DNA from: Paraspadella gotoi
Lineage: Eukaryota; Animalia; Chaetognatha
Length of the DNA: 64,000 nucleotides
Assembly: GCA_051294375.1 (NCBI GenBank)
Contig: CM119265.1
Location: 6,891,489 to 6,955,488, forward strand
Reading direction: 5' to 3'
A program made the translations under genes and the position numbers. The notes under the pieces are model-generated. The model was not told where the DNA came from. It did no database searches and saw nothing but the letters and a program-made list of their open reading frames with translations. Shown one piece after another: positions 2,051 to 64,000 of the stretch; the first letter of the stretch is position 1; the number at the start of each line of letters is the position of its first letter.

Positions 2051-4254
2051 AATTTTTGCTTATAAAATCTGATGGCAAATACTATTCTAAGTTTTGATTC
2101 ACTACTCTATATATAAATAATATAATATATGATATATATATAAATATAAATAATTAAATATAGCTCACTGGTGCCAACCAATGTATAAAATTAAAAAATA
2201 AATTTACTAAAGTATTTTTATTGGTTTTTATTTTTGTGTTTTATATGCTAAATTTTCATTTTCTAAAATTTTATCATTTTCACATCACTCTAATGTACAG
2301 GGTTCGGATTTAAAACTTAAACCCCATAGGAAAAATTATTATTTCCTGATAAATCTGAAAAATTTAATTTTAGCAATTATTTAATCGATCTTCATGTTCA
2401 TGTTTAGCTTATGTCAGCTCTTCATTTTCCTTTTGACTCTTCCAAAGATGAGTAGCCATTATGAAAGTCTTTACGTTCTTGGTACGACTGTATATTAAAT
2501 AATGGGTCGAGAATGACATAATTTTTGTTACAAGTACAGCTAAGCATCATAATAAATTCGCCCTATACTGCATTATCCAAATGAATTTAGATACTATTAC
2601 ATGGAGCATAATGCCCTTAAGCCAAAATTGATAGAAATTATATCAAAATAAATCTTAGTATATCTTAATAATGTAGTATATTATGCTGTATAAATAAAAG
2701 ATATCGATATCGATTGTCTGGGACCTTATACCGGTAATTATATGGTACTTCAGGCTACTGGAATATACAGCAGCTTCAATTTTTTTAAATTATAAAATAC
2801 TGATTTATATTGTATGCTTTTGTTTTTGTTTTGGCTTATGCGAGAAATTTGATTTTTTGGTTGAGAATTTCTTTTAAGGTATTTTAATAGTCCTACAAGG
2901 TTCAAATTCTTTATCTCACTAACTTTATAAAAGTTACAGAGGCTGATGATATAATTTGTAATTTTTTAAAATTTAATTTTAAAAGAAAATAAAATTCCTG
3001 ATCTCTCCCTTTTATGTATAATACAGTATTTTTACCTTTACAAAAGCTTAGATGAAGTTCCATAGGGCTCTTATCCAGAATATTTTTTTGTTATCACAAA
3101 TATTAATGTATGCTGCAGTATTAATTTGTAGTAATAATTTTTTCATTAATACTATGGGACTTAGAATAACGTCAGGTTGTGGACGTTGAGAAATCCATAA
3201 ACAGTACCGTCTCATTACAACTAGAAAGAAACCCGTGAGGTTGATCATTGTAACTTTTGCATATTTATGTAGTTGGTTTTTAATTATTTCGGCGCAGAAC
3301 AAACATGACTCCTGGTTTTCGGTTGCTTCCCATACTAATGTTTTTCGACAAAACTAAATACAATCCAAAAGATAGAAAAATCCTTAACGATTCTTCCGCT
3401 ATAAAAAATAAAATTTTGTGAAACAATTGTAGGTGGGGGAGGATAAATTAGGGGCTAACTTTCAAGTCCGTACTCTGTAAAAAAAATTTTATTAATATAT
3501 TCCAAGGTTTAGTGAGGGAACAGGCTGAAATTTTTATTTTCTATAAGTTTTAACTATGAAAACTATAAAATAAAAATTGCCGTCATTGTGGTTGTGAAAA
3601 AGCTTTTGACATTCTGATTGCTCAGGCACATACTCCAACGTCTATATCTGTACAGGGACTTCAATCTGGACAGATACGAAAAGACTTGAATAAAACTCGT
3701 AATTCCTTCACTGTATATTATTTTTATAACATTTATTAGTTAGAAAACTACTTGACATTTATGTTGACCTAAAAAAATGTTCAAATTTCCTAATAGTATA
3801 ATCGCAGTCGCTCTCAAACACGGAGTCAGTTTTTTTCAATTTTTTCGTCCAAATTTTAATAGTTTTAACAATTTAACAATTTTTAACGCTGATTATATTT
3901 ATAAGAATAAAAAATTTTGGTAATAAAAAGTCAGTTTGGTGATTTGTTATTATTAAAAAAAATTCTCATATAAAACCTAACCTATTTATTGTGATAACTA
4001 ATTAACTATTATTTATCAACAAAGTCGTCTTTCATAATTTTTTTTCCCCAAACTACAATTTTTATTTTAGTATTATATCCCGGCTCTATAATTCACTTTG
4101 TCGGTCCGCCCCCCCAATCTTGTCGGGCTATCTTTTATAACATGTCAGAACATCAAATTATGATAAATTATGCATGGTAATTATCCTTTCTTTTTCGTTG
4201 TTTGAGAGATTAACAAAGTTTGATTTTATTTTTGCAACGAATTTTATTTTACAA

Positions 4255-4298
4255 GAGCAGACATGTTTCGGCTCACAATACGGGCCTTCATCAGCGCA
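4255..4298 (-). ncRNA. Minimal type I hammerhead ribozyme
   Basis: Minus strand GCG-CTGATGA-A-GGCCCgtattgtGAGCC-GAAA-CATGTC-TGC: intact core, one stem II mismatch. Confidence 0.8.
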
Positions 4299-4320
4299 TA
4301 TGAGTTGTGAACTGGATACC

Positions 4321-4479
4321 CGCCCGCCTCACCGTCAGGTGAGAAGAGGGCCGCCGGCAGGCGCATCAGGCCAGAGGGATATAAGGGTGGCCTTGGGTTT
4401 GTTTCCTCAGGGAACAATACCTGAACCAGCCAACACGAGATCAATCCCATTATCCTCTCAACCCATGACGCACCAATGA
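4321..4479 (+). pseudogene. 3' end of an unknown element-encoded ORF (copy 1)
   Basis: RPPHRQVRRGPPAGASGQRDIRVALGLFPQGTIPEPANTRSIPLSSQPMTHQ*, colinear with copies 2 and 5. Confidence 0.75.
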
Positions 4480-4728
4480 CCCGGCCCCGTCAGCAATACC
4501 TCTCCTTCATAAGACCGGGGGGGGGCCCAGCTCATTTTGAGCTCTTTCTTAATTCTTATATTTCACTACAATCTTTACTTATCTATCCCTCTAAAATCTC
4601 AATTTTCAACTTCTAAATTTCAATTTTCAACTTTTCAATTTCAAAAAATTAATTTATTTCAATTTGTTATTAAACAGTTTCCATTATCTTTATCTATGTT
4701 GTACATTGCTCAAATGTAATTATTTATT

Positions 4729-4772
<44 letters not shown>

Positions 4773-4931
4773 ACCAATTTTCACTTCTTTACAAAACTTA
4801 TTCAAACTAGCCACTTCTAAAAATCTGTCCTCACCACTGATCACTGTCCTTACTCAATTCTTTGTTGGAAACCTTTAACCCTCTCTCTCTCTTTCTTTAA
4901 CTAAAAACTTGTATCAAGTTTACAACTCATA

Positions 4932-4975
4932 TGCGCTGATGAAGGCTCGTATTGTGAGCCGAAACATTTCTGCTC
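4932..4975 (+). ncRNA. Minimal hammerhead ribozyme with mutated stem III
   Basis: CTGATGA at 4936-4942, stem II GGCTC/GAGCC, GAAA at 4961, then CATTTC in place of CATGTC. Confidence 0.65.
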
Positions 4976-5369
4976 TTGTAAAATAAAATTCGGTGCAAAA
5001 ATAAAATCAAACTTTGTTGATAAATTATGCAAAAAAAATGTCCGTCCATCCGTCCCACCTTAGCAAAATTACCAATTACTCGTGATTTGATGGAACGATT
5101 GGAATAAAATTTTTTGTGTGGGTAGGAAAGTGTGTGATTAATCTGGAAATCAAGTTTCGATGGAATCGTCCGAGTGGAAATGATTTAAAATGGAAAAAAA
5201 AAATTTTACGAGGAAGTGTCTGATTGAACAGGAAATAGTTTCAATGGAATCGTCCAAGTGGAAATAAGTTAGAATAGAAAAAACAATATATTTCACTATT
5301 TATTTTTTTTAAATTTTTATATTAGAGAGAGCAAAGAATTTTGAATTTAACAACGATTTTTTATTAGTA

Positions 5370-5414
5370 GTTGGACATGTTTCGGCTTGCTTATTTCAAG
5401 CCTTCATCAGCATA
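5370..5414 (-). ncRNA. Minimal type I hammerhead ribozyme
   Basis: Reverse complement of the 6361-6405 motif: CTGATGA-A-GGCTTG(7 nt)CAAGCC-GAAA-CATGTC. Confidence 0.8.
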
Positions 5415-5473
5415 TGACATTCAATAATAAGTTTTGTGCAAAAGAAGAGTGTGAGAGAGAGAGAGAGAGAGAG

Positions 5474-5849
5474 AGCCCCGCCGCCACCACGCCCGCACAA
5501 TGACTCCCCTATCTCCACTCAACGAGACAGGCGGAGACCCTTGCGCAGGCAATGGGCAAACGATGCCTCTCCCTCTAATGCAGCAACTCAGCCCCTCCCT
5601 CTGCGGACTGAGCGTCGCCCAAAGCGACGGCTTCAGGAGGAGGGAAAGGAGTCCGTCACTCCTGTCACAAAAGTGGCAAGAACGGACAACCGCCCACCTC
5701 GTCAGCAGGCGAGAAGAGGGCAGCCGGCAGGCGTATCAGGCCAAAGAGACATAAGAGTAGCCCTGGGGATCTTTCCCCAAGGATCGCTTCCCAATCCGGC
5801 ATTCATCAGTTCGGTCATACTCTCCTCTCAGCCACTGACACGCCAATGA
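5474..5849 (+). pseudogene. 3' end of an unknown element-encoded ORF (copy 2, longest)
   Basis: Basic, Pro/Arg-rich ~124 aa ending KRRLQEEGKESVTPVTKVARTDNRPPRQQARRGQPAGVSGQRDIRVALGIFPQGSLPNP...SSQPLTRQ*. Confidence 0.78.
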
Positions 5850-6142
5850 CCCGTCATCATCGTCCTTGTCCTTCATTTGCGTAAAACAAGGGGGGCCAGC
5901 TCACTTTGAGCTCTTTCTTTCCCTTGAATTTCACTTTCTTAATCTCCTAATTATCAACTAAAACTAAAAACTACTTTCTTTCATTTTCACTTAACTATCC
6001 CTTAGCTAATTACTTATTTATTCACTAGTTAAATGTTAAAATTTCTCCAATGTTATTTTTTCAAACTCCTTTATCTTTGTTGTACATTGAAAAAATGTAT
6101 CTTTATTATTTATTTATCTCTGTTGTTTTGTTTCTCTCTCTC

Positions 6143-6177
<35 letters not shown>

Positions 6178-6281
6178 AACAAGTTTCACTTCTTTTCACA
6201 ACTCACTCAATCTGTCCTTACCTTCAACCTGTCCTCACATCTGACCACTATTCTGTCTCACCACTTTGTTGGAAAAACTTT

Positions 6282-6325
<44 letters not shown>

Positions 6326-6360
6326 CTCTTCTTTTGCACAAAATTTATTATTGAATGTCA

Positions 6361-6405
6361 TATGCTGATGAAGGCTTGAAATAAGCAAGCCGAAACATGT
6401 CCAAC
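6361..6405 (+). ncRNA. Minimal type I hammerhead ribozyme
   Basis: CTGATGA 6365-6371, 6-bp stem II, GAAA 6392-6395, palindromic ACATGT stem III, GUC cleavage triplet ending at 6401; AATAAA 9 nt downstream. Confidence 0.82.
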
Positions 6406-8528
6406 TACTAATAAAAAATCGTTGTTAAATTCAAAATTCTTTGCTCTCTCTAATACCTATGAACAACGAAAAAGAAAGGATTAACGCATCAATTTTTATA
6501 TTAAATGTAAATTCAAGTTGCGTTAATTAATTATTAATAAATAAGTAATTAATTATTAATTAAATAATTTATTTTGTGATCGAGATTGCTGTTTTGTGAT
6601 TGAGAGACGAGACAAAACTTTTTTGACACGAATTAAAAAAATTAATATTAATTAATTATCTGATCAGCTGCTTACCGCTAATGATCGTGGGCAGATCCGG
6701 CATTGTTTGCTCAAACTTGTTTGATTCTTTTTCGTGATACATTTATTAGAATATCTTATTAAACATAAAAATGAAGCATGAGAAAAAAATTAAATTGTTT
6801 TAATGGTAACTGAAGGATTGATAGTAAGATCCACTTTCAAAGTAAAAATTTCAAAGTTAAAAATGCTTCTTCAGAAATTTACCCTCTGAGGAAAAAAGCA
6901 ACTATCCTACCTAGAATGTTACGAATTGGTGGGAAAAAAAAGTCGAGTATTTTTCTATTATTATGAAAAAATTTTATAACCCGATTGCTCTTCGTTTTGA
7001 TTATATTACAAGTCATTTTGTATCAGTATAGATTGAAGTAATTGTATGAACTAAATTTTTTTAACATTGTTTTTTTCATAAAAGTTTATCTAGTTGACAG
7101 GAAGGTCCTTTTCAAATTCCAATTTTTTTTTTTTTTGATTCGACCATGCCATTGATGAGCACATTACTAAGAAAGTAAGCAAGCTGGACTACTGGGGGTT
7201 GAAAAATAAAAAAACGTCAGCGATTTTTCTACCAGAGTTCAAAATCTGAAGTTGCTATAACAAATTATTTAGCCCCAGTATTTCATCTTTTCATTTCACT
7301 CCCATTTGAAATCCGTGTATATTATATTTTGTCGATTGAATGTTGAGATTTATGTATTTTAATATTACAGCGACAAAAGTGAATGCTCGGGGTCAATATC
7401 TGTGATAGAGAAATGCATCTCTGTAATTCACTTTTTATCGTCGCAATCGCTTGCGATGGTGGACGATGGTCCCCATAAATGGCGTTGTTGTTCCAAATTA
7501 TAGATCGTTTTTTTTGGTCGGATCTGCTTATCAGCAGATTCCGAATCTATAATTCACTTTTTCGGTCCGTTGGTCCCCACCCTCAATCTTGTCAGGAATT
7601 CACTTATATCATTCAGAACTTCGAATTATGATAAATTATGCAAAAAAAATGTTTGTCCGTCCAACAAAAAACACCTATTACTCGTGATTGGATGGATGGA
7701 TTGGAATGAAATTTTGTGTGTGAGTAGGGAAGTGAGTGATATAAAGTGAGTTGGATATGAAGTGAGTTGGATATGAAGTGAGTGAGTGATATGAAGTGAG
7801 TTGGATATGATATGATAATTTGATATCGCATCAATAATTCGTTATCATCGCATCAATAATTCATTATAATTGCATCAATAATCAATTAATCAATAATTCG
7901 TTATCGCATCTATCATTCGTTTTTTTTTCTGATTTTTCATTAATTTTCTTCTAATGTCTGTCGAGATCATTATACTTTAAAATTTTTTTTTATGCGATTG
8001 CGATGATCCTTATGCTTTTAAGATTTTTTTTATCCGTCTCAAAGAGCCAATTAATATTTAACAAAATATTTTGACTCTGTAGTGATCACTCTTACTCATT
8101 ACTTATCTCCTTTTTTTTGGTTTACCTAAAGAATAATTTATTTTGGTTGTTTATATTTTGATATTCCCATGAGGGATTTTTAGTAGAGTAGCAAATAATT
8201 TATTTTATCTCGCCAGAAGGGCTTAAAGCCCATCTTGGCGATATAATCGTTTAGAATTGCTTCTTTGTGCCATCGTCGTTCTTGTCGTCACGCTTTTTTT
8301 ACAATGGGAAATTGTAAAAAGCTAAAAAGCAAAAAAATTAGATATAGCTTTTCAACATCAAGATCTTTTAAAATGATATGTTTCATATCGATTCAAGTAT
8401 TTTTTTATTGAATTTCGTTTTCCTTATGATTTATTTAAATTGTTTGTAAATCTTTCTTTTCGTTGGTAGAATGATTAGACGAAATAACAATTTTCAGTTT
8501 TTCACAACGAATTTTTTATTTAAATGGT

Positions 8529-8571
8529 AGCAGACATGTTTCGAACGTGTATTTCGTTCATCATCAGTGCT
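8529..8571 (-). ncRNA. Minimal type I hammerhead ribozyme
   Basis: Exact reverse complement of 8749-8791. Confidence 0.85.
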
Positions 8572-8596
8572 GAGACTGAATTACAAAATTTGGTAA

Positions 8597-8667
<71 letters not shown>

Positions 8668-8690
8668 ACAAGCTTTATCCCTTTGTCTTT

Positions 8691-8723
<33 letters not shown>

Positions 8724-8748
8724 TTACCAAATTTTGTAATTCAGTCTC

Positions 8749-8791
8749 AGCACTGATGATGAACGAAATACACGTTCGAAACATGTCTGCT
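8749..8791 (+). ncRNA. Minimal type I hammerhead ribozyme
   Basis: AGCA-CTGATGA-T-GAACG(aaataca)CGTTC-GAAA-CATGTC-TGCT: 4-bp stem I, 5-bp stem II, GUC cleavage site at 8787. Confidence 0.88.
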
Positions 8792-9689
8792 ACCATTTAA
8801 ATAAAAAATTCGTTGTGAAAAACTGAAAATTGTTATTTCGTCTAATGATTTATTTAAATATACAAATTAGAATATAGTACTAATTATCAAGTAAAAATGT
8901 TTTTTAAAGTTTTGGGCACTTCCATGTCTTGGGGCTTAGGGGCAAAAGGGCGAATTTAAAAATTCTACCTGAGGAAAAGTATATTCGAAAATTTTATTTC
9001 CTTTTAATTTTATCTTAAATAAAAATTTTAGGGAACCTGGAAAACTTCATTTCATAGCACTGGTAAATTAGTAATATACAAAAATTTGACAATGAAAAAA
9101 ATTTTCTGTAATCTATAGACATGAAATTCTTTTAATAACTACACGCCATATATAATGACTACTTATGCTGGAAGAAATCAGCGAAACGTTTTCCTTTTTT
9201 TTTTTAATTAGTACTAGCGCTTCAGAAATATTAAGAAAGTTGAAAATTTTATTCTGAAAAATTTTATCTTTTAATGCATACGTTTTGAATTATATCTCAA
9301 AAACCATTGGCATCTTTCTTCATGGATCGGCATAAAAATATACAAAAAATAAATTGGTATCAATTCTCTGATGGGGTATATACTTAACCCTAGCATTTTA
9401 AGCGGGTTTTACCTTTAACCCTAACCCAGGCTTTATTTTTAAGCCTTAACCCAAAACCTAGATTGTAATTTATTCAAATAATGATGAAGCGGGCGATTCA
9501 CGCATACTCGTAGGTGTGGTTTTAATTGGTTGACGACTTTGCTATGGCAATATCGCCAGAGCCTTAGCGGCGATTCCAATACCCGTACTGGCGACCTCGC
9601 CAGTGATAAAAGTAATGAATATAACAAAAGGCGCGAATTAAAGGGCCCTTTCTCCAATTTAATTCTAAACCAGGTTTCCATACATTTCA

Positions 9690-9945
9690 GTACCTCTCCC
9701 CAACCCCTAACCCTTACCAGTACTTTTCCTAACCCTAATGCTGTCTTCCTGTTCATCCTAACCTTAAAATTGACATTAACATTAAGCCTAAATGGAACTT
9801 AACTAAATTTAACCCTAACCTTAAACTTCTCAACCCTAACTACTTCTAACTCACCCATAACTCTAACCCAAACTAACTCAACCCTAATCTAAACCTAAAC
9901 CACCTAAACCCTAACCCTAACTACCTCAACCCTAACCTAAGTTTA
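9690..9945 (+). repeat. Degenerate (TAACCC)n telomere-like tract
   Basis: Repeated AACCCT/CCTAA units, bracketed by short IR TTCTCCAATT (~9650) / AATTGGAGAA (~10002). Confidence 0.6.
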
Positions 9946-10202: not shown

Positions 10203-10368
10203 TGGAGCCGGAGTTGGAGCCAGAGCCGAGTTAAAATTTTTGCTGGAGTCGGAGCTGAATTACAATTTTTGCTGGAGCCGGAGCCGAATAAAAATTTTGT
10301 TTAGAGACAGAGCTGAAATTTTGTTTAGAGCTGGAGCCGAAACAAAATTAGGTCGGCTCTACATCTTT
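10203..10368 (+). repeat. GGAGCC-repeat MITE fragment
   Basis: Tandem GGAGCCGGAG(T)/GGAGCCGAA units ending in GTCGGCTCTACATC. Confidence 0.45.
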
Positions 10369-12932
10369 GGTATCAATTATTGATTATCATCGTATCAATT
10401 ATTGGTTATCATCGCTTCAATTATTGGTTATCATCGCATCAATTATTAGTTATTATCGCATCAATCATTTATTATCATCATATCAATCATTTATTATTAT
10501 TGTATCAATTATTGGTTAATGGTTAATTGGTTATTATTGCATCAATAATTTGTTATCATCGCATAAATAATCAATTATTATTACATCAATCATTCTTTTT
10601 TTTTAGATTTTTCCATTAACTTTTTTTGATAATAACGTCTGGCGAGATCACTATACTTTTAAGATTTTTATTTTCTCAGCTTTAGGTTGCTTACTTATAA
10701 AGGTCACAAAGACTAAAAATTTTTATTTTGTAAAAAAAAAACGAAACTAAAATACTTACAATTCCTTCCGCCATATTCTTTTGTAGGAGGTTGCCATTGA
10801 TTGTTTTTTGATTAATTTATTTTTATTTAGAGCTGTAAGAAATATGCTTCAACCATCCTGATATGTGGTACTTACCGATAATAAAAATTTTATAAATTAA
10901 TAAATCTATAAAGAAAAAGGTTTCTCTTAAATTTTGTAAAAGATTTAACTTTTATACAGACGCAGCAAATAAATAAAAAGTGAGGAATGAACAACATTGT
11001 ACAAATAAACTTTAATGTATATAAAAATTTTATTATAATTTTTATAATTTACGCAGTAGGATATATTTATATATAGTACTAACCCTATAAATGTTAAAAT
11101 GGTTTGTTATAAGATTTTTTTGCAGATTTGGATTCGTCATAAAAAGTTGATAATAAGAAATATAACTTTTTAAAAAAATTCTTTCTTTCAGTTGTTTAAA
11201 AATCGGAAAAACCTATATTTTAGCTGAAAATTAAATATATACTAAAAAAAATAAATAAAAATAAAAATAAAAACAAACCAAAAAATTGTTTAACATATAC
11301 TTTAATATTTCATTCGTAATATGTATCCCTATCAGAACATATCATTCTACTAGTAGTCTTATCCTTATGATAAAAATAATCATACAATATAACAATAATC
11401 CCAACCAAAAAAATTATCCATTCCCCCTCTATTTGTTTGGCCTTGTAGATATTATGAGTTTCTCATTAATGATTTTCCAACTGGAATGATGTATATCTAT
11501 ATATATGTATATGTATGTATATTTATGTATATCTATTAGAAACTGGAACAGAAAGTAATCTAATCTTGTGTTGTGTAGATGCACCCTCTATTTCCCGAAG
11601 ATAACACTAATGTCCCCATCCCAAACATATAAATAATATTATATTTAAATATTTAACACAAAAATATTTTAACAAATAAATAAAATCATAAATAATATTT
11701 ATTTTAAATCTAAAAAATAAAGATAGTGAAACAAGTAAGTTTGCAACTTTCATAAATATATAGTTATATATATTTATATATAGCTTACTGCGAAAAAAAA
11801 TATTTAAAAAAATATAAAATAATTTTTTTTTTGAATTAATGTTCACTAAGGCGTAGTGAAAGTTGCAGATCAAAATTCGAATAGTTAATCATGAACAGTA
11901 TTAAAGAACATTAAGAAATTAAATTTTTTTAAAAAAATTTTCCAATTTCATACGCCCATATAAGTCTTAATCGTAAATTCTTTCATTAAGTTAGCTAAAA
12001 ATTAAAAAACTATATTTTTTATACTAAAATTAAATTATAAGTTAACTATAACATTTTTTTTAGGATTTTGACCCTTCTAAAAAAAGTTATATTTCCTTTT
12101 AACTTTTTTAAGGAATTCGAATCTGCTTTCACAAATAAGAAAAAAACATTTTAAAATTTTTATATTTTTTATAGCGAGTACTATTTATAAATATGGACGT
12201 ATGCGAAAATTGAAAAATAAATATTTTTTATTTAAAAATGTTCACATAAACAAGCCTGTTTATGATCTACTATTCGAATTTTGATTCAACTTGATTTTAA
12301 TATTTTTGCTACGCTTTAATGTTCACTGGTAGTACGTTGTTCATAATTGACCATTAGAATTTCCATATGTGACTTTCATTAAGCTCTAATAAATATTGTA
12401 ACATGTCTCAATCTTTTCATCGCTCCACCCTATTATGCAGTATGAATCAGGTGTCTACAATGCTTCTAAATAATTAGTCGGTTCAATTGACATCCTCAGT
12501 ATTGAATCTATTGATGTGTGAATAAAATACTATTTTAAAATTTGGCGACCGAGATTTTTTTCTTAAACGTCGCATTTTTGTTAATTTTTTCTTTTTTTAA
12601 TATACTGTTTGCCTTCGAGATACTTAACAGTTCTTACGTATAATTTATTTTCCTAGATATATAACGAAACCGAAATTTTTGAAAAATTCATATTTCATTG
12701 ACGATAAAAATTTTGTCTTGGGGTCTTTTGGTTTAAAATTCGTGACGGTTTTTGTTTATTTCAGCAAAAACAGCGCAGTTTTTTGTTTAAGATTGAGTAT
12801 TGTTTAAATTCATTGACAGTAATTTTTCGATTCTTTAACTGTAGATCAAATGTTTTGCCAGTTTAAAGTCAAATCTTGTCAGAAAATCTCCATATTAGTT
12901 AAATGAGGAGAAAATAATTTAATAACACAATA

Positions 12933-18267: not shown

Positions 18268-21200
18268 ATGATAGCGACTATCGGGCGTCGCGCCGTCCAG
18301 GCTGTTTTGTCGAATCCATCTCCGAGCCACGCTCTCTCGGGCGTGCGTAATGGCAGTGGCGGCGGCGGCGGGGTTTGGGTTTACCGCCGTATTCAAGAAG
18401 CTGAGCCCATAAACACACGATATTGGTCGTATATTATGTCAACCTTCTTTTGGTACTGGGTATTCACTTTTTTTTATTTCGAACCTGAATACTTTTTTGG
18501 TCACACTCCCCCGCCGGATCCTGAATCCTTTACAGACGAAGAATTAGGAATTCCTTGCGAACAGGTTACGTATAGGAAAGATTTTCCACCTCCCGCGATT
18601 ATTTTTTTTTCCAATACGTCGTCAATACTTTTTTCTGCAATTACTTTTTAGCCGGATCTGCTTAACTTTGTCGGTCCGTCAGTCCGCCCCCCCAATTTTG
18701 TCTCTAAGTCACTTAAATCATGTCAGAACATCGAATTATGAGAAATTATGCCAACAAGTTTGAGCAAACAATGTCGGATCTGCCCACGATCATTATCGGT
18801 AAATAAATTAAATGAGTTTAAATGGAAAAAACATAAGTAACATTTACTTGAATCTTTTTACTAATTTGAACCTTTATTATTCGAAATAATTTTTTAATTA
18901 ATTAATAGATTGAGATGAAATTTTGTGCGTGGGGAGGAAAGTGATTGAGCCGGATATAAAGTTTCAATCGAAAGAACCAAAGTCAAGTTGACTTGAATTT
19001 TTATTAATTATGCTTATTCATGAATGTTTTAATTATTTAAAATTTGATTTATAAATCAAATTAAAATAATTAGATATATATGAAAATTTACAAATTACTT
19101 GTTTCACTATTTTCTATTTTAATATTTTAATATTTTTATGAAGGATTTAGTATTTAATCTATATTATTTAATCAAACATATATTGCTTTCTTTTTTAAAA
19201 ATGTTTTATCTAATAATTCAATTTGGGAAGGGGAAGTCAGTGTTATCTTCTGGAAATAGAGGGAGCATCTATACAACACAAGGTTAGATTACTATCTGTC
19301 CTAGTTTTCTAATAGATATCACACATCATTTCTGTTAGAAAGTCATTAATGAAAAATCATAATATCTAAGAAGCTGAACAGAAAAGGATAATTTTTTGAG
19401 GGGGGACCAACGTTATATATGATTTTTTTTACCAATAGGGATAAGACTACCATGTAGAATTGTATGTTCTGATAGGGATACATACTGGGGAAAGGTCTAT
19501 AGGGGCACCTTTATGTCATGAATATAATTTTAAAATACTTTAATGAAAATTTTATTTTTTCTTTATCCTATTTTTTAATTATTTCTTTTTTGAATATTTT
19601 TTATCTTTTATGTTTATACAATGGGAAGGTAATCAGTTGGGAACCTATACCCTTCATGGATTTCGGCTCTTTAATCCCAATATCCAGGTATATTAGATAT
19701 AAAGTTTCGATAGAATCTTGCGAGCGAAAGTGAAAAAAAAGTAACATTTACTCTTGCTCTCTATCTTGCTCTCTCTCTTGCTCACTCTGCAAGTTACAAA
19801 AATTATACAAGTTGAATAAATTATATGGGTAAAAAAAAGATGTTAGTTGAAAAAAATGCAGGTTTAAAAAATTATGTGAGTTAAAAAAAAATTATGCGAT
19901 TTTAAAAAAAGGAGCGAGGTAAAAAAAAATGATGCAAGTTTTAAAAATGATGCATTTTAAAAAAATGAGGCAAGTTGAAAAAACAAATCTAGTTAAAAAA
20001 ATTATTTGTATCATACTATTATTAAATATAATCAGTATATTTTTATATATTTTTATCAGTAATCACTTAAGAAGTATAAATACTTTAAATTTATATCTTA
20101 AAAAGAATTAATATGACAGTTTGCTATCTACAATTTAATAAAACCCCCAAAAAAATTCAAACCCGAGTTTTTTTTTAAAAAACACAGGTTTTTGCCAACC
20201 CTGTTTCCGAATTTATATTGAATTTTTTTTTTAGTAGCTTCCTTTTATTTTTTTGTAGGTCAAATCATTTAAAAGTTACTTTATTATGAAAAATGGCGAA
20301 AAAAATGTATTTAATTTTCCACCATTTTTGGTATTTAGTTATTTGTTTTATATTAACTAGTTATTTTTTAAATATTTTTTTAATTTAACAATGCTAAAGG
20401 CCTTGCACCTCTTTCTGGTTCAAAAAAGTATTATTATAGCTTTCAGAAAAGAGGAAAAGATGCGCAACATTAATATCAGGGCTGCGCAGAATTGCGTTAA
20501 AGATGTCGAAAAACATTTTGCTGTCATACCTCAATTTGCTGTATAAGAGCATACCCAGATAAAGGCAGGCAGTAGTTGATGCCGAGGAAGGGTATACCAA
20601 ATATTGAGAATGTTATCATTATGTTTTACCCATGTTTTATATACTTTTTATTGAATAAATGAATTATGTCATATACTTTTTTCCTAAATAGTACATTTTT
20701 TTCCTATTTTTATCGTTGCACGGAAGCGATAATCGAGCTTTGAATGTGATTCTATATACATGGTGACAATTTTACAAGCGCTGTCATTTGCAAACCAGTG
20801 GTTATTTCATTGATTTTAAAAATTAGTTGAGTAGAAAATATTAAAGTCATTTATGTGTTCAATTTTTTTATTGATCAGTTAAGATATGCTTTGGCAATAG
20901 TGAGAAAGTTGGCTTGTAAAATCGGGTTTCATTTTCCAACTCACTGTTTTTTTTTTTTTTCAACTTTTAGTACTTTTTAAACAAAGTATTTATTAAGATA
21001 TTAACAATATTAATATCCTCAGAAAGCCCTTAAAAAAATGAAGAGAATGATATACTTACGAAAGCTCTAACATAAAAATTAAGAGAGTCAAAAGTTAATT
21101 ATCTAAAATTTTAAATATTTTTTTAAAATATATGATCTGTTTAAATTATTATAATATAAAATATTATTATTTATATAAGTATCATGAAAGAGCCTGAAAA

Positions 21201-21467: not shown

Positions 21468-22535
21468 ACTTAATTCATTGTCTATGTAATTTGTAAAAAA
21501 AATGCGTGTCACTTATGACTGTTGAGAGTACTGATAACAATGGCGAGTTGCGGTTTAATTTGCTTTTTCAATTTCAACTCTCTAGGCAAAGTAGAATATA
21601 GAATACACATTGTGCCCCTTAAAAATTGTCTTCAAAGCCGAGCGATAAAATAATACTACGATAAATTCCGTCCTTTCGTCATCACTATGTTGGACATCAA
21701 CTCTCGTTGTGGTTCGTCGATCTTATAACCCCGCTCATCAATTATATCTTTTTAACATGTTATGACGAAACACATATTTCAGAACGTCATTGAGACGAAC
21801 ATTTTAATTTCGTCGACTTCACGAAGTTTCGACAGTCCTCCATCCAAGAAATCTATTTTGTGGCTCATGAGTCCAACTTAGAAAGTGTTGGTTCGTTTTT
21901 ACTTCGCCAGATGGGTTAAAGACCGACTTGCTATTACATCAATCAATTGTTATTACATCAATCAATTGTTATTGCATCAATCAATTGATATTACTTCAAT
22001 CAATTGCTATTACATCAATCAATTGCTATTACATTAATATATATGCTATTACATCAATCAATTGCTATTACATCAATCAATTACTATTACATCAATAATT
22101 TGTTATTGCATTAATCATTCTTTTTTTTTCAGATTTTTTTATTAATTTTCGGCGAGATCACTATACTTTAAGATTTTTAGTTTTTAGTCGGGTCTGATTC
22201 TCGCAGATTCCGACTTTATAATTCATTGTCGGATTGACAGTCCACCCCCACAATTTTGTAAGAACATCAAATTATTATAAATTTTGCAAAAAACATGTCT
22301 CCGTCCGTCCGTCTATCCGTCCGTCCCCCTCTGCAATTACTCGTGATTGGAAGAATGGATTAGAATGAAATTTTGTGTGTGGCTAGGAATTGGTGTGATG
22401 GAGCTGGATATGAAGTTTTGATAGAATCGGGCGAGTCGAAATGAGTTTAAATGGAAAAAAAATTCATGTTTTTTCGAAATCTTTTACTTATATTTAGTCT
22501 AATTATTCTAATTATTAAAAATTAGATAGATAAAT

Positions 22536-22767
22536 TGTGTTTATCTTTTTTTCAGTGTTTTTTTCAAAACTTAAAAGCTCTGATAAAGGCTTGAATTAAA
22601 GCCGAAACATGTCACTCCGGTAAATAAAAATCGTTGTTGAAAAAAAAATATTTTGATAGATAAATCAAAACACTGATGAAGACTCGAACCTGTCAAGAGT
22701 CGAAACATGTCCGTTAATAATGTCAATTACAAATTCCTTGTAAAAAGTAATAAAAACTTACGTTTTC
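22536..22767 (+). mobile_element. Two tandem short hammerhead-bearing pLTR fragments of the same family
   Basis: Motif 1 at 22580-22613 (CTGATAA variant, GGCTT/AAGCC, GAAACATGTC). Motif 2 at 22673-22711 (CTGATGA, GACTC/GAGTC, GAAACATGTC). Each is followed by the family's AT-rich 3' segment. Confidence 0.72.
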
Positions 22768-25339
22768 GATGGATAAATTAAAATTTTATTTTATATGTGG
22801 TTATATGATTAAACTGGATATAAATTTTTGATAGAATCGAAGGAGTGGATAAGTGTTTAAATTAAAAAACCAAAAGTCACCTTTACTTAAATTTTTTAAA
22901 AGATTCTCTCTCTATATCTCTCTCTGATTTATTTATTTTATTGATTAGCTGATTGATAATTTTTAGTCGGATCTGCTTTCTGAAGATCCCGATTCTATAA
23001 TTCACTTTGTCGGTCCGCCCCCCCCAATGTTGTCGGGCATTCACTTACATCATGTCAGAACATCGAATTATGATAAATTATGCAAAGAAAATGTCTGTCT
23101 GTCTCATTGTGTCTGTCTGTCCGTTCGTCCGTCCCACATTAGCAAAAAGCTCCAAAAACTCGTGATTGAGTGGTTGGATTGGAATGAAATTTTGTGTGTG
23201 GATAGGAAAGTGTGTGATGGAATCGTGCGAGTGGAAATGAGTTAAAATGGAAAAAACATAAGTCTCATTTACTAAAATCTTTTTACATATTTTAACATAT
23301 TTTAACCAATAATTACTCAAATTAATCATAATTGAATTAATAGATTAAGATGAAATTTTGTGTGCGGGTAGGAAAGTGTGTGAAGAAGCGAGATATCAAG
23401 TTTTGACGGAATCGTGCCAGTGAAGATGAGTTTAAATGGAAAAAAACATAAGTCTCATTTACTGGCATACCATTTTTTTGCTCAAAAACCCTTTTTTCAT
23501 AAAGTTTTATGTAAATCTTTAGAGGGAATACCCTATTTTAAGTTTTTCCAGGTGAAGGAGAAGAGAAACAATATCCATGCATCAAAAAGTTAATCAGATT
23601 TATATTTTTTTTTCTTTTCCTTAAAAAAAACCTTTAATCCAGCAATAAAAAAATTATCATTTATACTATTATGTAAAATCCTTTCTTTTGTCGCGTTTTT
23701 GAATTAGAAAGAGTTTGAAGTTTGAAGCAACAATTTTTTTTAAACAGTGAAAATGTTTTTTTTTTCAATATGTATCTCTCTCTCTCTGGCCTAAACCTAA
23801 CCTCTCTTCCCCTCGACCTCTATCCTTTTCTCAAATCTTTGTTGAAAATTTTTTTCTCTCTCTTTCTCTCTCTCTCTCTTCCCTTACTCACCTAATTCTC
23901 ACTCTCTCTTCCTTTCTCTCCTCTCTCTCCCAAATATTTCTTGTGATGTAAAAAACTGTTGACAATTCATAAATATGGATGAAGACTTGAATTAAAAGTT
24001 GAAACAAGTTCACTGTTTAAAATCTGATACGAATATAAGATCAGTTTTAATAAGCTGTATAAACTTTATTAATTATTTTTTTCTATTGAGTTTCATTTAA
24101 CTTTAGTCCCAAGGGTTTTATAACTAAGACGACTCTTATTCAAACCTTGAGTATATCATATCAAGTTTCATTATAATAAATAATACAGCAATATAAAATT
24201 ATTAAATATTTTATTGTTTTGACAAGGAATAACATATATTTAGTCTTAAGCAATTCATAGTAGAATTTACAAATTCATTTTTATTACTTTCATGCGAATA
24301 TTTTGATTCTTATTAACAAATCATTTTTCAAGGCAGTTCTTTTGTATTTTGCTCCTCTCTCTTTCTCTCTCTCTCTCTCTACCTGACTTTTTCTGGAACA
24401 ATTTACTTTTACTCTGGACTGCCTTTAAAAATGATTAGTTCATAAGAATCAAAATGTTGGCAAAAAAGTAAGAATATTATACTTATAAATCCCACCACGA
24501 ATTGCTTAATACTAAATATTTTTTTATTCCTTGTCAAAAAAAAAGTTTATATGCTTAATACTAAATCATTATCTCCTGTGCATATGAAGTCTCTTCAACA
24601 ATGAATAAAGAAATAATATTAATTCTGAATTTTAACAGTTACTAAAAAAGTATCTTTTGTAACTGATATTTATTTTGTCTATATAGAGCTATGATAGTTT
24701 TTTATGATTATATAATTCTTTGTGATACAACCATTATATTTATAGTAGATCAAGAACTATTAATATTGCGTATTTTATCAGTTTTTGAGCGTCTTTTTCG
24801 GTTTTGGACACGCCCACTATGGGTAAGAACATTTTTAAAAAAAAATTTTAAAGTAAAACTTATTAAATAATGAGAGTAACTTAAAATTTAGGCAATTATT
24901 ATTTTTATAAAACTATTTTCTTATCTTGCAATTAAAGAAAAGAGAAAAATTCCATGTTGTAGTCAACGTCAACTTCCGGTCAATTGTGCGTAGGTCTAAC
25001 CCAAAATCTGATTGAGGACACCTTGTTAATCGTTTTACGCACTTAAAATTATACTAGAAACTGTACAGGATTGTGAAAATTTTCGACTGAATGGTTAAAA
25101 AAAAAACAGTGTACTCATCATGACTTATCTGTTTAGCTGCTTACCGCTAAGTTATCGCAGGCAGATCCGACATTGTTTGCTCAAACTGGTTAATTGTAAA
25201 TTAGTTATCGGATTAGCGAAGTAACAATTGTATACTTTCCATATTTTGTCGTACATAGTATTTCGCAATTATATTTTTAATGATTTTCTTATGATTACGA
25301 ATATTTAAATATATATTTAATTTCTTTAGTTTGGTAAAA

Positions 25340-27925: not shown

Positions 27926-28136
27926 TAAATAAATATATCCCATTTGAAATATGAATATAATTTGTTTATTTTTAACATTTAAACTAAAATGGTCCATTAA
28001 AAAGAATCCGAGAATGCACAAACTACTAATGATTGGTTGCTCAGTAAGTTATTGTCGATTTGTAACCATTAGTTTACATTTTTTTTTTAGTCATTTTGGC
28101 TACATTAAAACGTTGAATTCCATTAATAAATCAACA

Positions 28137-31100
28137 ATGGGTGAAAACGAATCTCAGTTAAAAGGATGGCTTTACGGGTGGCTCGGAAAACGCGGCGTTA
28201 CTCCCGACTACAGTATGCGTCAGACTATGACCAAGAACAAACAGACCCGTTTTATATCCGAGCTTCGCGTCGATGGCTTCAATTATGTCGGTCATGGAAA
28301 CTCCTCAAATAAGAAGGACGCACAAACCAATGCCGCTCGTGACTTTTGCCAGTTTCTTGTCCGAACAAAAGAGTTAAAGCCAGAGGATGTTCCAGGGTTG
28401 CAACCCACTGCCACAGAGTTCATCGGGAACGCTCCTGTAGAGAATCCCGATGACAAAGAGGCGAACCGGACGTCACTTCCCTTTGCACCCATGCCGCATC
28501 AGTCTGTCGGCGCTGCTTTGGGTCTCACAGGTGCCGCCGGACCCAACTTAGATGTGGCGCCGTATCAACGCGGTCCACCACAGGAGTACCTGGCCAAAAT
28601 CGCGCTGCAGCAGCAAAAGCGCGTTGAGGATGCTGAGGATCTTGATATGACAGCCACCAAACATGGGAACTGGACGTTAGAAAATGCTAAAAGCAAATTA
28701 CACCAGTTTATGCAGGTTAATCGAATTTCTACTGACTACAAATATTCCGCTTTTGGCTCAGATCATTCGAAATCATTCGCTGCCGAGATGTCTTTTTATG
28801 TCAAGAGTATCAAGAAGACTGTGCAAGCTAAAGAGCATGGATCAAACAAACAGATGGCTTCCAAGGCTTGTGCGCTCTCTTTGGTGCGACAGTTATTTCA
28901 TCTTGGCGCCGTCGAAGCTTTTTGTGGAACTTTGGCGCGAAAGAAGGAAGTTGATGCGATGCCCCCATTCGCAGTTGGAACTAATTCTGCTCTTAAGGAA
29001 AAACTCATTGCATTTGTGAAAAAGATGCAGCTTAAAGTTGCAGCAGCCCCCAATGAAGGGTCAGAACCTGCGAATCTAATAATCGGTGATCGACTAAAGG
29101 ATTTTGAAACTAATAAACCACAGCGTGGGGGCGTTGTCGCTTGGTCTCCACCAGCGCCTAATTGGAACCCATGGACCGGATGCAATATTGATGAAGGCCC
29201 TTTGTCTTACACACCTCTGGCTGATATTTCCAGGGATCTTCGAGAGGCACAAGTTCAACGCGTTCAGCATGATGAGCAGTTACGCGCCATTGGACAGGAA
29301 CGATGCAAGCTGCCAGTTTTCCAATTTCGACAGTCCATTCTTGACATAATCGAAAAAAATACCGTTGTTATCATCAGGGGGGCCACTGGATGTGGGAAAA
29401 CCACCCAGGTACCTCAATATATTTTAGAAGATTGGATTGATAAATATAAAGGAGGGGAATGTAATATTATTGTGACACAACCACGCCGCATTTCCGCCGT
29501 ATCCGTGGCGGAGCGCATGGCCGAGGAAAGATGCGAGGAATTGGGCCAATCAACCGGCTACAGTGTTCGTTTTGAATCTTGGCTTCCACGTCCATATGGA
29601 AGTACCCTTTTTTGCACAGTTGGCGTTCTACTCAGGAAGTTAGAAGGAGGCCTGAGAGGTGTAAGCCATGTAATCGTCGATGAAATTCACGAGCGAGACT
29701 TAAATTCTGACTTTTTACTAGTCTTGTTGCGGGACATGGTGAAGGCATTCCCAGATATGAAGGTCATACTAATGTCAGCGACTATTGATACATCACTTTT
29801 TAGTGAATATTTTGGGGGTTGTCCAATTGTTGAGGTCTACGGTCGAACACATCCAGTTCAAGAGTATTATCTTGAAGACTGTATCCAGATGACGAGCTTC
29901 GTTGCCCCGCCGCCAAAGAAAAAAGCTAACAAAACAAACAAGGATGATTCTGACGAAGAAATGCCAGACGAAGACCCGGCCCTGAGTGAGAATCTTAACA
30001 AAGTGTGTGCTGCTGATTATCATGAGCAAACGAAACGTCAAATGTCGGTTCTAAGTGAGAAGGAGATCTCTTTCGAGTTAATTGAATCCTTACTTAAATA
30101 CGTCAAAAGTCTCAACACTCCGGGTGCGGTCCTGATTTTTTTGCCTGGGTGGAATCTTATCTTTGCTTTAATGCGCTATTTACAGGAGCATCCGTTATTT
30201 GGGACGGCTTCGTACAAGATTTTGCCTCTTCATTCGCAAGTGCCAAGAGAAGATCAGCATAGGGTTTTTGAAGTTGTTCCTTCAGGCGTTACTAAGATTA
30301 TTCTTTCCACGAACATTGCCGAAACATCTATCACAATCAATGATGTTGTCTACGTAATCGACTCTTGCAAGGCCAAAATGAAGCTGTTTACCTCGCACAA
30401 TAACATGACCAACTACGCCACTGTCTGGGCTGCTAAAAACAACTTGCTCCAAAGACGAGGACGGGCCGGCCGTGTTCGCCCCGGCTTTTGTTTTCATCTA
30501 TGTTCTCGAGCCAGATTTGAAAAACTCGATGAGCATATGACGCCCGAGATTTTCAGGACTCCTCTGCACGAAGTTGCTCTGGCAATTAAGCTCCTGCGCT
30601 TGGGTTCGATCAAGGATTTTTTGAGCAAAGCGATGGAGCCTCCGCCCATTGATGCAGTGACCGAGGCAGAATTAACTTTACGTGAAATGAACGCCCTGGA
30701 TGAGAACTATGAGCTGACTCCACTTGGAGCTATTCTGGCGCGCCTCCCGATCGAGCCACATCTTGGAAAGATGATTGTTCTTGGATGTATTTTAGGAGTC
30801 GGTGACGCCGTCTGCACAATCGCTGCTGCATCCACGTTTCCCGAACCGTTTCTTACATTTGGAAAAAGATTACCGCAGATGCATCGGAGGTTTTCCGGGA
30901 CACGTTATTCGGATCACGTTGCTCTCTTGTCCGTTCAGCACTCTTGGGAGGAGTCAAGAACAGGAGGTGAGGAACAGGAGTTTAGGTTCTGTGATACGAA
31001 GTCGCTGGCAATGCCTATTTTGAGAATGACCTGCGAAGCCAAGAACCAGATTCGTGATATCCTCATCAACTCTGGTTTCCCGGAAAGTGCCGTGGCCCCT

Positions 31101-31868
31101 ATAAATTTTAACTACAACGGACCGGATATCAAGCTCGACCTACTCATATCAATCCTCGTCATGGGACTCTATCCGAACGTCTGCTTTCACAAAGACAAGC
31201 GCCGTTTAATTACCATGGGGGGGAAGCCAGCGCTCATACACAAAAACTCCGTCAACTGCTCATCTTTCGATACGACCTTCCCCAGTCCGTTTTTCGTGTT
31301 TGGCGAGAAGATCCGCACCCGCGCGGTCTCGGCTAAACAGATGACCATGGTAAATCCCCTGCAGCTTCTGCTTTTCGGGTGCAGCAGATGTACATCTGAC
31401 GGACAAGGTCTGGTGGTTATGGACAATTGGATAAAATTGCAACTAGAACATGAATTGGCGGCAAGTATACTGGCTCTGAGGCCTGTCATCGACGCGCTGC
31501 TCGTGAGGTGCTCTGAAAATCCCGAGAGCATGTCGACCCCTGATGAGACAGACGGCGAACTCGTAGCATTGATTCAAGAACTGTCATCTCAAGATGCGGC
31601 GGACTATGGTATTGATCGAGCCGTCTCTAACCCTACCTCCGATTTTGGCCCACCACCTGCGAAATTTTCACGTGGAGGAAGTTTTGCTCCGAGGGGCGGA
31701 TTCAGGGGTGGTTATCGAGGCGGTTTTAACGAAAACTTTGGACCGAGGGTCCCAGGATTCAGTCGAGGTTTCCGTCCCTTATTTGCTGTAAGATCGAGAG
31801 GATATGCTGGTCCGAGGGGATTCGGTGGGAGCAAGTTTGGCGGTGGGAGAGGACGAGGATTAATGTGA
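28137..31868 (+). CDS. DHX9: DExH-box RNA helicase A (DHX9/maleless), intronless coding region
   Basis: Two N-terminal dsRBDs ([13 protein letters not shown]; [10 protein letters not shown]), [31 protein letters not shown]2/OB-fold region and a C-terminal RGG tail. The likely ATG is 28137 ([18 protein letters not shown]). Confidence 0.96.
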
Positions 31869-32225: not shown

Positions 32226-32975
32226 TTTTTATCTCGCCAGATGGGCGAAAGCCCGACTTGGGTGGGATGTTAATTCGCTTTGCTTCTTAGTGACCGTAGT
32301 CGTCGTCACGCTGTTTTACCATTGGAAATAGCTCAAGATATGGCTTTTCATCATTGAGGTCTTTTAAATTGTTATGTTTCATATTGTTACACGCATTTGT
32401 TTGTTTTATTTATAAAACAATTTTTATATGTATAAACGAGTTTAGCTCTGCAGCGGCTGTTCAGCTCTCTATCTCTTTCTCTTTTAAATAAATATCGCTC
32501 TTTTTTTTACCGTCGTTACTTCTTCTGATTCGTTTAAAGACGAGTTAAGCTCTGCAGCGGCTGTTCAGCTTCTCTCTATCTTTTTTTTTTATCTTTCTTT
32601 CTCTCTCACTCATACACACATTTGTTTGTTTTATTTACAATGAATGATTCATCTCATCAATGAATGACTATCATCGCATCATTGAATGATTATCATCGCA
32701 TCAATGAATGACTATCATCGCATCCATCATTTAGTTATTATCGCATCAATATTTAGTTATCATCGCATCAATAATCAACTACTATTATATCAATCAATCA
32801 ATTATTATTACATCAATCAATAAATTATTATTATTACATCAATCAATAAATTATTATTATTACATCAATCAATCATTATTACATCAATCGTTAATTCATA
32901 AATCATTCTTTTTTTTTCATTAATTTTTTTTAATAGTAACGTCTGACGAGATCACTATTTTTAACTTAGGATTTA
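32226..32975 (+). mobile_element. Helentron/DINE-1-like family 2 copy
   Basis: Same termini and ATCATCGCATCAAT/ATTACATCAATC satellite as 8203-10669. Confidence 0.62.
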
Positions 32976-33613: not shown

Positions 33614-34888
33614 TTTTTAGTCGGATCTACTTATCAGCAGATCCCGACTCTATAAATCACTTTGTCGGCCCGTCGGTCCACCCCCTCAATATTGTCGGGC
33701 ACTAACTTATATCATGTCAGAACATCGAATTATGATAAATTATGCAAAAAAAAATGTCTGTCTGTCCGTCCGTCCGTTCGTCCGTCCGTCCCACCTTAGC
33801 AAAAAATACCAATTACTCGTGTTTGGATGGATGGATTGGAATGAAATTTTGTGTGTGGGTAGGGAAGTGTGTGATTGAGCTGGATATAAAGTTTCGATGG
33901 AATCGTCCTAGTGGAAATGAGTTTAAATGGAAAAAACAAAAAAATATAATTCACTATTTGAACACCAATTGCTCATGAGTGGATGGGGTGATTGACCTGG
34001 AATTTTGTATGTGAGTAGGAAAATGTGTGATTGAACAGGAAACCAAGTTTCGAATGGAATCGTTTGAGTGGAAATGAGTTTAAATGAAAAAAAAACAAAA
34101 AACCTGTTTCACTAATTGATTATGATTTTTTTTACTTTTATATTAAATTGTATATGCAGGATGTATTAATAAATCAAATAATTAATCAGTTAATTAATCA
34201 ATTAGTCAATTAATTAATCACTAATTAATTAATCAGTCAATCAATCCATCCATCCGTCCCACCTTAGCAAAAAGCCCTAATAACTCGTGATTGCCTGGTT
34301 GGATCGGAATGAAATTTTGTGTATTTGTAGGAACATGTGTGATGAAGCTGGATATAAAGTTTCGACGGAATCGTGTGAGTGGATGGATATGAGTTTAAAT
34401 GGAAAAAAAATAAGTCGCATTTACTAAAATCTTTTTACTTATTTTAACCAATAAATACTCTAATTAATCATAATTGGATGGATAGATTGAGTTCAAATTT
34501 TGTGTGTGGGTAGGAAAATGTATGACGAAGCTTGATATTAAGTTTCGGTACGAGTGGAAATGAGTTTAAATGAAAAAAAATGAGTCACATTTACTTGACT
34601 CTTTTTACTTATTTTAACCCATAATAGATTGAGATGAAATTTTGTGAGCGGGAAGGAAACTTTGTGAAGAAGCTAGATATAAAGTTTTGACGGAATTGTG
34701 CCAGTGGAAATGAGTTTAAATGGAAAAAATATAAGTCACATTTATTTATTTTAAGGATATCGATGATGATAAGCTGTATATAAATTTATAATTAATTATT
34801 AAATATTAAAATTAATTAATTAATCGATTAATTAATTAATTATTAATTTTCGTAAGGCAGATCCGACATTGTTTGCTCAAACTTGTTT
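33614..34888 (+). mobile_element. Helentron-associated / DINE-1-like non-autonomous element (family 1), apparently complete
   Basis: T-run, subterminal IR GTCGGATCT(A/G)C with an adjacent partial IR, (GTCC/GTCT)n microsatellite, internal ~120-bp tandem repeats, then 3' GCAGATCCGAC and a GTTTG/CAAAC hairpin ending in TTT. Other copies or fragments lie at 4077-6722, ~7512-7810, 18647-18790, 22185-22880, 22960-23465, 25161-25192 and 32058-32090. Confidence 0.72.
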
Positions 34889-41721: not shown

Positions 41722-42139
41722 CAGTTCCAAGCTATATCTACCACTATTGCAATCATTTTCTATCTTTTAATAGTTGCAATTAGGGACAATTATTTGTATT
41801 ATATCGCCGCTGACGATGTTGTTAACCTTTTTGGATTTATCAATATGTAGCAGTTTGAATATATCCTTGAACTATATGAATACTATGTACATACATACAT
41901 AAAGGATTTTCTAAAGTTAATTTGAGCATACATCTTTGGTTCTGATTGGTTTTCAGTTTTAGTAATTGGATAAGTGCACTAAGTCATATCCTATCGTAGT
42001 TGCTACACGTAGTCTTTTTTTCGTATGTCCTACGCGTTATACTAATGCAAGAAAAAAAAATGTTCTCCCGAAGTTTAGTGGATGATTTTGGCGATGGATC
42101 ATATATTACTATTCCCTTTTGAATTAGGATGTTAATAAG

Positions 42140-63676: not shown

Positions 63677-64000
63677 TAATCCTTTCGTTTGTTGTTTGAA
63701 ATAGATTAAAGGAAAACGAAATTTTTTCGCGTTTTAACAACATTTATTTTTTTATGTAATGGACAAGTTTCGACTCTAGTTTTCGAGTCTTCATCAGTCT
63801 GTATCTCCCGTTTCAAAACAGGCCAGAACAGACAACTGCCCGCCTCACCGTCAGGTGAGAAGAGGTCTCTCGGCAGGCCTATCAGGCCAGAGAGATATAC
63901 GAGTGGCCCTTGGCATTTTTCCAGCCGGATCTTTGCCAGACCCGAACCAATCCCACTCCACCACAATATCCTCTCAGCCCATTACAGGCCAATGAACCGA
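63677..64000 (+). mobile_element. Penelope-like element derivative (copy 5), truncated by the window end
   Basis: Degenerate minus-strand tail ~63678-63705, minus-strand hammerhead 63762-63797 (GAAACTTGTC variant), fused directly to ORF remnant 63798-63995. Confidence 0.8.
63798..63995 (+). pseudogene. 3' end of an unknown element-encoded ORF (copy 5)
   Basis: SVSPVSKQARTDNCPPHRQVRRGLSAGLSGQRDIRVALGIFPAGSLPDPNQSHSTTISSQPITGQ*, translated by hand (this frame is not in the ORF track). Confidence 0.78.

Follow-up and report, generated by a model that had tools for sequence, protein, structure and literature searches.

A conserved reading-frame end of unfamiliar sequence in hammerhead-bearing Penelope-like element insertions of the chaetognath Paraspadella gotoi

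Host genes and repeats of the locus

The stretch of DNA analysed, referred to as the window, comprises 64,000 nucleotides (64 kb) of contig CM119265.1 of Paraspadella gotoi. It is AT-rich, the GC content being approximately 27–33% outside the genes and 45–50% in coding sequence. Among the host genes are those for a DHX9/MLE-type helicase (27948–31868), which occupies one open reading frame (ORF) of 1306 codons, and for BLTP1 (42128–60902), which is spread over three giant ORFs of 1614, 2246 and 1338 codons; further exons belong to TAF11-like, NDUFB2-like and DEAD-box genes. The host genes contain strikingly few introns and have very long exons.

Several repeat families lie between the genes. 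A dispersed host repeat (D4, D6, D7, D9 and D10), which has a GTCGGTCCG...CCCCCC head and contains GTCCGTCC repeats, probably belongs to the SINE- or MITE-like elements. It occurs at least five times (4087–4174 plus 5018–5300, 18665–18950, 22200–22470, 22997–23450 and 33659–34770), is partly tandem at 33.7–34.8 kb, and was the target of the first of the Penelope-like element (PLE) copies described below. Two long inverted repeats (I1 and I2; 1457–2047 and 19079–19663; 240 and 309 nt, 96–98% complementary) are situated 17 kb apart and bracket the region with most of the PLE copies. Minisatellites with ATCATCGCATCAAT-like units of 19–22 nt are found at 7812–7926, 10354–10615, 21910–22136 and 32638–32928. 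After each of them comes a conserved CGAGATCACTAT block (D2, D5 and D18), an arrangement resembling the terminal part of a different family of mobile elements. Degenerate CCCTAA/CCTAA repeats with periods of 21–27 nt, similar to telomere repeats, are present at 9784–9936 and 37380–37620. Two PLE copies are found no more than roughly 1 kb away from them, an association that could be due to chance. Lastly, nested inverted repeats (I5, I12 and I13; 71–82% complementary) at 36081–36532 and 37828–38275 flank the PLE copy at 36.9 kb, as if a foldback or MITE-like element had been the site of its insertion.

Anatomy of the insertions

The insertions that retain coding sequence share one plan which, read from left to right on the forward strand, consists of an inverted duplicate of the element's own 3' end, the truncated end of an ORF, a 3' UTR of approximately 430–450 nt with conserved blocks and a (CT)n tract, and a 3' terminal repeat. 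Copy 1 is enclosed by a 14-bp target-site duplication (4161–4174, repeated at 5018–5031) and begins with a 38-nt tail that is present on the inverted arm only (4175–4212, reverse strand). The inverted 3'-end duplicate follows (4213–4319, reverse strand; I7, 89% complementary to 4911–5038; hammerhead core at 4265–4294 on the reverse strand), and then the conserved frame (4321–4479, forward strand; 52 codons plus TGA, with homology from 4315) and the 3' UTR with (CT)n and terminal repeat (4480–5017, forward strand; hammerhead core at 4936–4965). This copy lies within another repeat, and the uninterrupted copies of that repeat at approximately 23.0 and 33.7 kb carry the 14-bp site once, as an empty site.

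Copy 2 opens with an inverted 3'-end duplicate (5320–5475, reverse strand; I4, 98% complementary to 6300–6455) containing (GA)n and a reverse-strand hammerhead core (5379–5410). Its conserved frame of 124 codons plus TGA (5475–5849, forward strand) includes the basic motif PPxxQxRRG (5694–5720) and the invariant core SGQRDIRVALG (5736–5768). The remainder (5850–6490, forward strand) holds the 3' UTR, (CT)n, a hammerhead core (6365–6396) and the tail (approximately 6456–6490), and the target duplication of about 8–11 bp is found at 5312–5322 and 6491–6501. Copy 5 begins with tail and inverted arm (63678–63797, reverse strand; I17; reverse-strand hammerhead core at 63767–63797), which precede a conserved frame of 65 codons plus TGA (63798–63995, forward strand); the element continues past the end of the window.

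The remaining copies are shorter. The one at 8.4 kb (8441–8845, forward strand) has no ORF and consists of a tail (8441–8475) and two 160-nt arms that are 99% complementary, with hammerhead cores at 8538–8567 (reverse strand) and 8753–8782 (forward strand) and a 14-bp target duplication (8427–8440 and 8846–8859). Another copy devoid of ORF, at 36850–37335 (forward strand), has cores at 36924–36953 (reverse) and 37217–37247 (forward) and its tail on the right. At 22575–22770 (forward strand) two very short same-strand end stubs are present, in which one hammerhead core is intact (22673–22706) and the other decayed.

An inverted-repeat search delimited the arm pairs as 4192–4319/4911–5038 (identity 0.891, copy 1), 5320–5475/6300–6455 (0.981, copy 2) and 8470–8629/8691–8850 (0.994, the 8.4 kb copy). 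The inner ends of these pairs (I3, I4 and I7) lie at differing points, and the point of 5' truncation is variable. The tail motif of 35–38 nt is situated outside the arms at one end only, on the left in copy 1, in the 8.4 kb copy (8441–8475) and in copy 5 (approximately 63678–63710), and on the right in copy 2 (6456–6490) and in the 36.9 kb copy. Target-site duplications measure about 8–14 bp and lie in AT-rich DNA.

No full-length copy exists within the 64-kb window, in which all copies are 5'-truncated. In four public runs 2311, 1957, 519 and 518 contigs match copy 2 at a likeness of at least 80%; the element is highly repeated. Run X3, which may be RNA, closely resembled run X6 in contigs and depths. 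Longer copies exist: in two contigs, of 726 and 660 nt, the match starts at position 5541 and the sequence extends at least approximately 520 nt further upstream.

Hammerhead ribozymes

A search of the window with the pattern CTGATGA-N10-30-CGAAAC gave 10 matches against 0.06 expected. The arms contain CUGAUGA, a helix II of 5–6 bp and GAAAC-AUGUC; helix II has four different sequences, with pairing kept in all of them, and the terminal repeat (pLTR) accordingly carries hammerheads of the minimal type I. These motifs agree with the minimal PLE hammerhead of Cervera and De la Pena (available text of PMC4209133) in that the base preceding helix II is unpaired, helix III is tiny and palindromic (ACAUGU) and the motifs come in pairs on opposite strands, 100–700 bp apart, as in the dual minimal hammerheads of that paper. 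No hammerhead reached the Rfam gathering score, and none appeared at E≤10 in the region 4000–9000, where what Rfam matches, under the names of microRNA families, are (GA)n/(CT)n hairpins. One such hairpin, built from the two arms of the ORF-less copy (8578–8742), matched many plant and animal microRNA families with E-values down to 1e-11, all below the gathering scores, and is a false-positive trap in RNA annotation.

In the portions of PMC8557442 and PMC3846280 consulted, PLE insertions are characterised by a 5' end that is often truncated, a neighbouring copy that is inverted and likewise 5'-truncated, and a 30–40 bp tail at one end only. The inverted 5' copy and the one-sided tail are also described in PMC11167929, where, as far as the text available extends, the tail is tied to two RT start sites. 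By anatomy and hammerheads, the "ribozyme elements" in which a preliminary description had placed the frame are ordinary truncated PLE insertions, RT being absent from the window.

The shared reading frame

Copies 1, 2 and 5 have in common a gap-free frame, which ends in ...SSQPMTHQ, ...SSQPLTRQ and ...SSQPITGQ, respectively, with the TGA stop at one aligned position in all three copies. One copy pair shows no gap over the 162 nt of the 54 shared codons (116 matches and 46 mismatches), as against 69 gap columns when the 3' UTRs of these two copies are aligned. Alignment of the three peptides revealed 31 invariant columns, among them S88–G98 (SGQRDIRVALG), F100 and P101, which cluster in three small blocks: PPxxQxRRG, AGxSGQRDIRVALG[IL]FP and SSQPxTxQ. 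Between copies 1 and 2, seven of the ten codons of GQRDIRVALG are changed and all seven changes are silent, while the core of copy 5 has the additional synonymous codons CGA, CTT and GGC. The common frame and stop and the silent codon changes, both pointed out in the preliminary description, were thus reproduced when translations and codons were compared, and they go beyond what chance would produce. When the peptides were searched against the 64-kb window by TBLASTN, only these three places were matched, the next match having an E-value of 0.16.

The context of the stop codon, CCAATGA(C/A)CCG, is conserved as nucleotide sequence in each of the three copies (4476–4489, 5846–5859 and 63992–64000). 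This exceeds what the amino acids require, and the context may act as a signal where the ORF ends.

Selection on the frame

Differences at codon positions 1/2/3 amounted to 10/10/26, 16/8/22 and 15/11/24 in the three copy pairs. Over the 54 shared codons the Nei-Gojobori dN/dS values, which rest on three copies, were 0.23, 0.47 and 0.32 (Fisher P = 4e-5, 0.029 and 0.0018). Only one of the six frames, the conserved one, is open in all three copies. The other five either have stops in at least one copy of each pair or give a dN/dS of at least 1.09; the two other sense frames range from 0.87 to 2.56, and the antisense frame that shares third positions gives 0.39–0.69 but contains 2–4 stops. These data support a coding frame that evolved under purifying selection across the shared 54 codons, as had been proposed from the silent changes of the core.

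Residues 1–58 of copy 2 are represented by this single copy and lie outside the three-copy comparison. Among the at least 18 variant places listed for other genomic copies at 5573–5674, codon periodicity is not evident (7 third, 6 first and 5 second positions in the 18 listed).

The divergence between the copies mostly predates their insertion, since they differ by approximately 28% in DNA and the arms within an insertion by only 0.6–11%. The differences would mostly have arisen in diverged, active source lineages, in which selection at the protein level would have purged amino-acid changes and left the silent excess. Whatever decay followed insertion can only have increased the dN/dS that was measured. 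Silent differences between subfamilies are the pattern to be expected in 5'-truncated retroelement ends, and a retained ORF 3' end with common frame and stop is likewise expected because retroelement copies are 5'-truncated. The peptide is a genuine remnant of coding sequence from a PLE family that is new and abundant.

Composition, predicted structure and motifs

The 124 residues of the copy 2 peptide include 20 R, 19 P, 11 S and 11 Q. AlphaFold2 assigns it no fold (mean pLDDT 55.8, pTM 0.16): the single element of secondary structure is a helix at residues 93–96 (IRVA), and among blocks of 10 residues the highest pLDDT, 69, falls on the invariant core (91–100). The tail is therefore modelled as an Arg/Pro-rich unstructured region, in agreement with its earlier characterisation as basic and probably disordered, and its invariant core possibly forms a one-turn helix.

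Two motifs had been suggested. The canonical PCNA-interacting (PIP) box has the consensus Qxx[ILM]xx[FY][FY], and one is carried by LINE-1 ORF2p. The sequence here is Q-R-D-I-R-V-A-L in all three copies, with Ala and Leu replacing both aromatic residues, and the proposed resemblance to a PIP box is not upheld. What it shares with the ORF2p box is that both are short motifs of a retrotransposon protein that start with Q and have an aliphatic residue at +3; ORF2p has two aromatics at +6/+7, whereas Ala and Leu occupy these places here. The classical bipartite nuclear localization signal (NLS) comprises two basic residues, a spacer of 10–12 residues and at least three basic residues among five. 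The NLS-like segment KRR-x13-KVAR does occur in copy 2, and in that copy only, since copies 1 and 5 are both truncated before it and lack the first cluster; with a 13-residue spacer and two basic residues of five in KVART, it does not conform to the bipartite consensus. To judge from composition, the Arg-rich clusters could nevertheless act in nuclear import or nucleic-acid binding, and the pairing of an invariant hydrophobic core with an invariant extreme C-terminus suggests recognition of a partner.

Searches for relatives

The 124- and 143-amino-acid translations matched no Pfam family at E≤0.01, RT and GIY-YIG included. Neither RVT nor GIY-YIG domains were detected by Pfam in any of the 128 ORFs of the window (at least 60 amino acids, outside host genes) or in any of the three peptides, which bears out the earlier remark that the peptide does not resemble RT or GIY-YIG. 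A word-indexed search among longer proteins returned 1017 candidates, none at E≤0.01. Exhaustive HMMER analysis of 1.84 billion representative proteins gave two matches at E≤0.001, both of which were rejected. In one (P0004), a repeat protein, the match falls on an NPCBM_assoc-like domain; the alignment requires gaps inside the invariant core and its score derives from three repeats. The other (P0005) is a repetitive DnaJ protein of 2513 amino acids, matched over only 29 residues. Of 529 stretches of metagenome contigs, one (L001) passed; it proved to be an off-frame reading of a high-GC bacterial contig and was rejected. No relative was encoded by the 61 matching stretches of viral contigs or by the 600 of prokaryote genome contigs, and the ESM Atlas yielded no usable match.

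No credible relative was thus found in the libraries searched (Pfam, the HMMER protein set, the contigs and the ESM Atlas), and the peptide, described at the outset as unrecognised, resembles no known domain in them. This orphan status is weak evidence because the query is short and of low complexity and the library contains no close relative of the host: for the host DHX9/MLE orthologue, the top-scoring protein in a library of 5.8 billion clusters is from an oribatid mite, with 55% identity, and the other listed relatives, from across Bilateria, show 55–59% identity.

Origin of the peptide

The peptide is probably the end of the element's own protein, a C-terminal, basic tail predicted to be disordered and to carry a short docking motif. 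Three 5'-truncated insertions of a hammerhead-bearing PLE would each have retained its last 52–124 codons. The basic segment would most likely serve nuclear import or nucleic-acid binding, and the tail would most likely also present a short docking motif to a partner in retrotransposition. That the frame is continuous with an RT-EN ORF is inferred, as the window has no RT, no GIY-YIG and no full-length copy.

The insertions resemble those of the canonical EN+ PLEs (Penelope/Poseidon, Neptune, Nematis and Hydra; PMC8557442 and PMC4209133, in the parts available) in frequent 5' truncation, the inverted upstream copy, a one-sided tail of 30–40 bp, duplicated targets within AT-rich DNA and the minimal hammerhead. 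They differ in the end of the ORF: in canonical hammerhead-bearing PLEs, according to the text seen of PMC8557442 and PMC11167929, the ORF ends in the GIY-YIG domain, whereas here it ends in 124 basic codons of low complexity that contain no GIY-YIG. Among the PLEs in the accessible text of PMC8557442, Chlamys-1_cBra of Chara braunii is the one described with a C-terminal extension, which likewise has extra motifs. It belongs, however, to an N-terminal-EN clade of the green lineage and its motifs are Josephin-like and Cys/His, the comparison being one of descriptions. It is possible, though on balance doubtful, that a lineage of animal hammerhead-bearing PLEs gained, after or beside the endonuclease, a disordered Arg/Pro-rich module of at least 125 residues, which includes an invariant docking motif of 17 residues and is maintained by selection across subfamilies.

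Alternatively, the frame might be the end of a separate small ORF, situated downstream of RT-EN or in an alternative last exon, which encodes a basic, unstructured accessory protein such as an RNA-binding chaperone. The 124 codons free of any GIY-YIG or RT signature and the basic, Arg-rich sequence would suit such a protein, and a long end without EN is as compatible with a separate ORF as with an extension, canonical PLEs being single-ORF elements in the part of PMC8557442 at hand. We regard this as unlikely: neither a start codon nor an upstream in-frame stop occurs in the 124 codons of copy 2, and a PLE with a downstream ORF is not reported in the accessible portions of PMC8557442 or PMC3846280.

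That a non-autonomous PLE derivative, mobilised in trans, captured the peptide as part of a host gene or of some other element is quite improbable. PLEs are reported to retrotranspose host genes in trans (PMC8557442, as far as available), and the fragment has no PLE protein domain; a passenger, however, would not retain the same stop and purifying selection in three diverged subfamilies, and no host-like relative was found among the 1.84 billion representative proteins or elsewhere in the window.

There is very little probability that the stretch is untranslated and conserved as an RNA or DNA signal of the element. Its nucleotide identity (0.716) is barely above that of the aligned columns of the 3' UTR (0.698), and copy 2 has several overlapping open frames. 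A signal of this kind would, however, conserve the bases themselves, whereas the changes gather at third codon positions, those of the core are silent in seven of seven cases, and the other five frames are set apart by stops or by their dN/dS. It is scarcely credible that the units are endogenised copies of a circular RNA resembling that of delta viruses, with a hammerhead in either polarity, and that its antigen ends in the peptide: hammerheads do occur on both strands, the peptide is basic and unstructured, and its string ARTD recalls what we take to be the NLS of the delta antigen, but the hammerhead pair of each unit is one sequence duplicated at insertion in inverted, near-identical form, truncation points vary, the tail is one-sided, targets are duplicated, Pfam gave no match to HDV_ag, and none of the 61 viral-contig stretches encodes a relative.

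Implications for Penelope-like elements

With the peptide read as the end of the element's own protein, its conservation is the expected trace of selection acting on active source copies. The less ordinary point is that the ORF end is long, has no recognisable domain and bears a motif. To our knowledge, PLEs are understood less well than any other class of eukaryotic retrotransposons and have no known host partners. If a module was indeed gained, canonical animal PLEs would have their first described accessory C-terminal module or second protein, and the class a handle on its host partners. Should the tail belong to RT-EN or to a second protein, a concrete bait for such a partner would be available in its small invariant motif.
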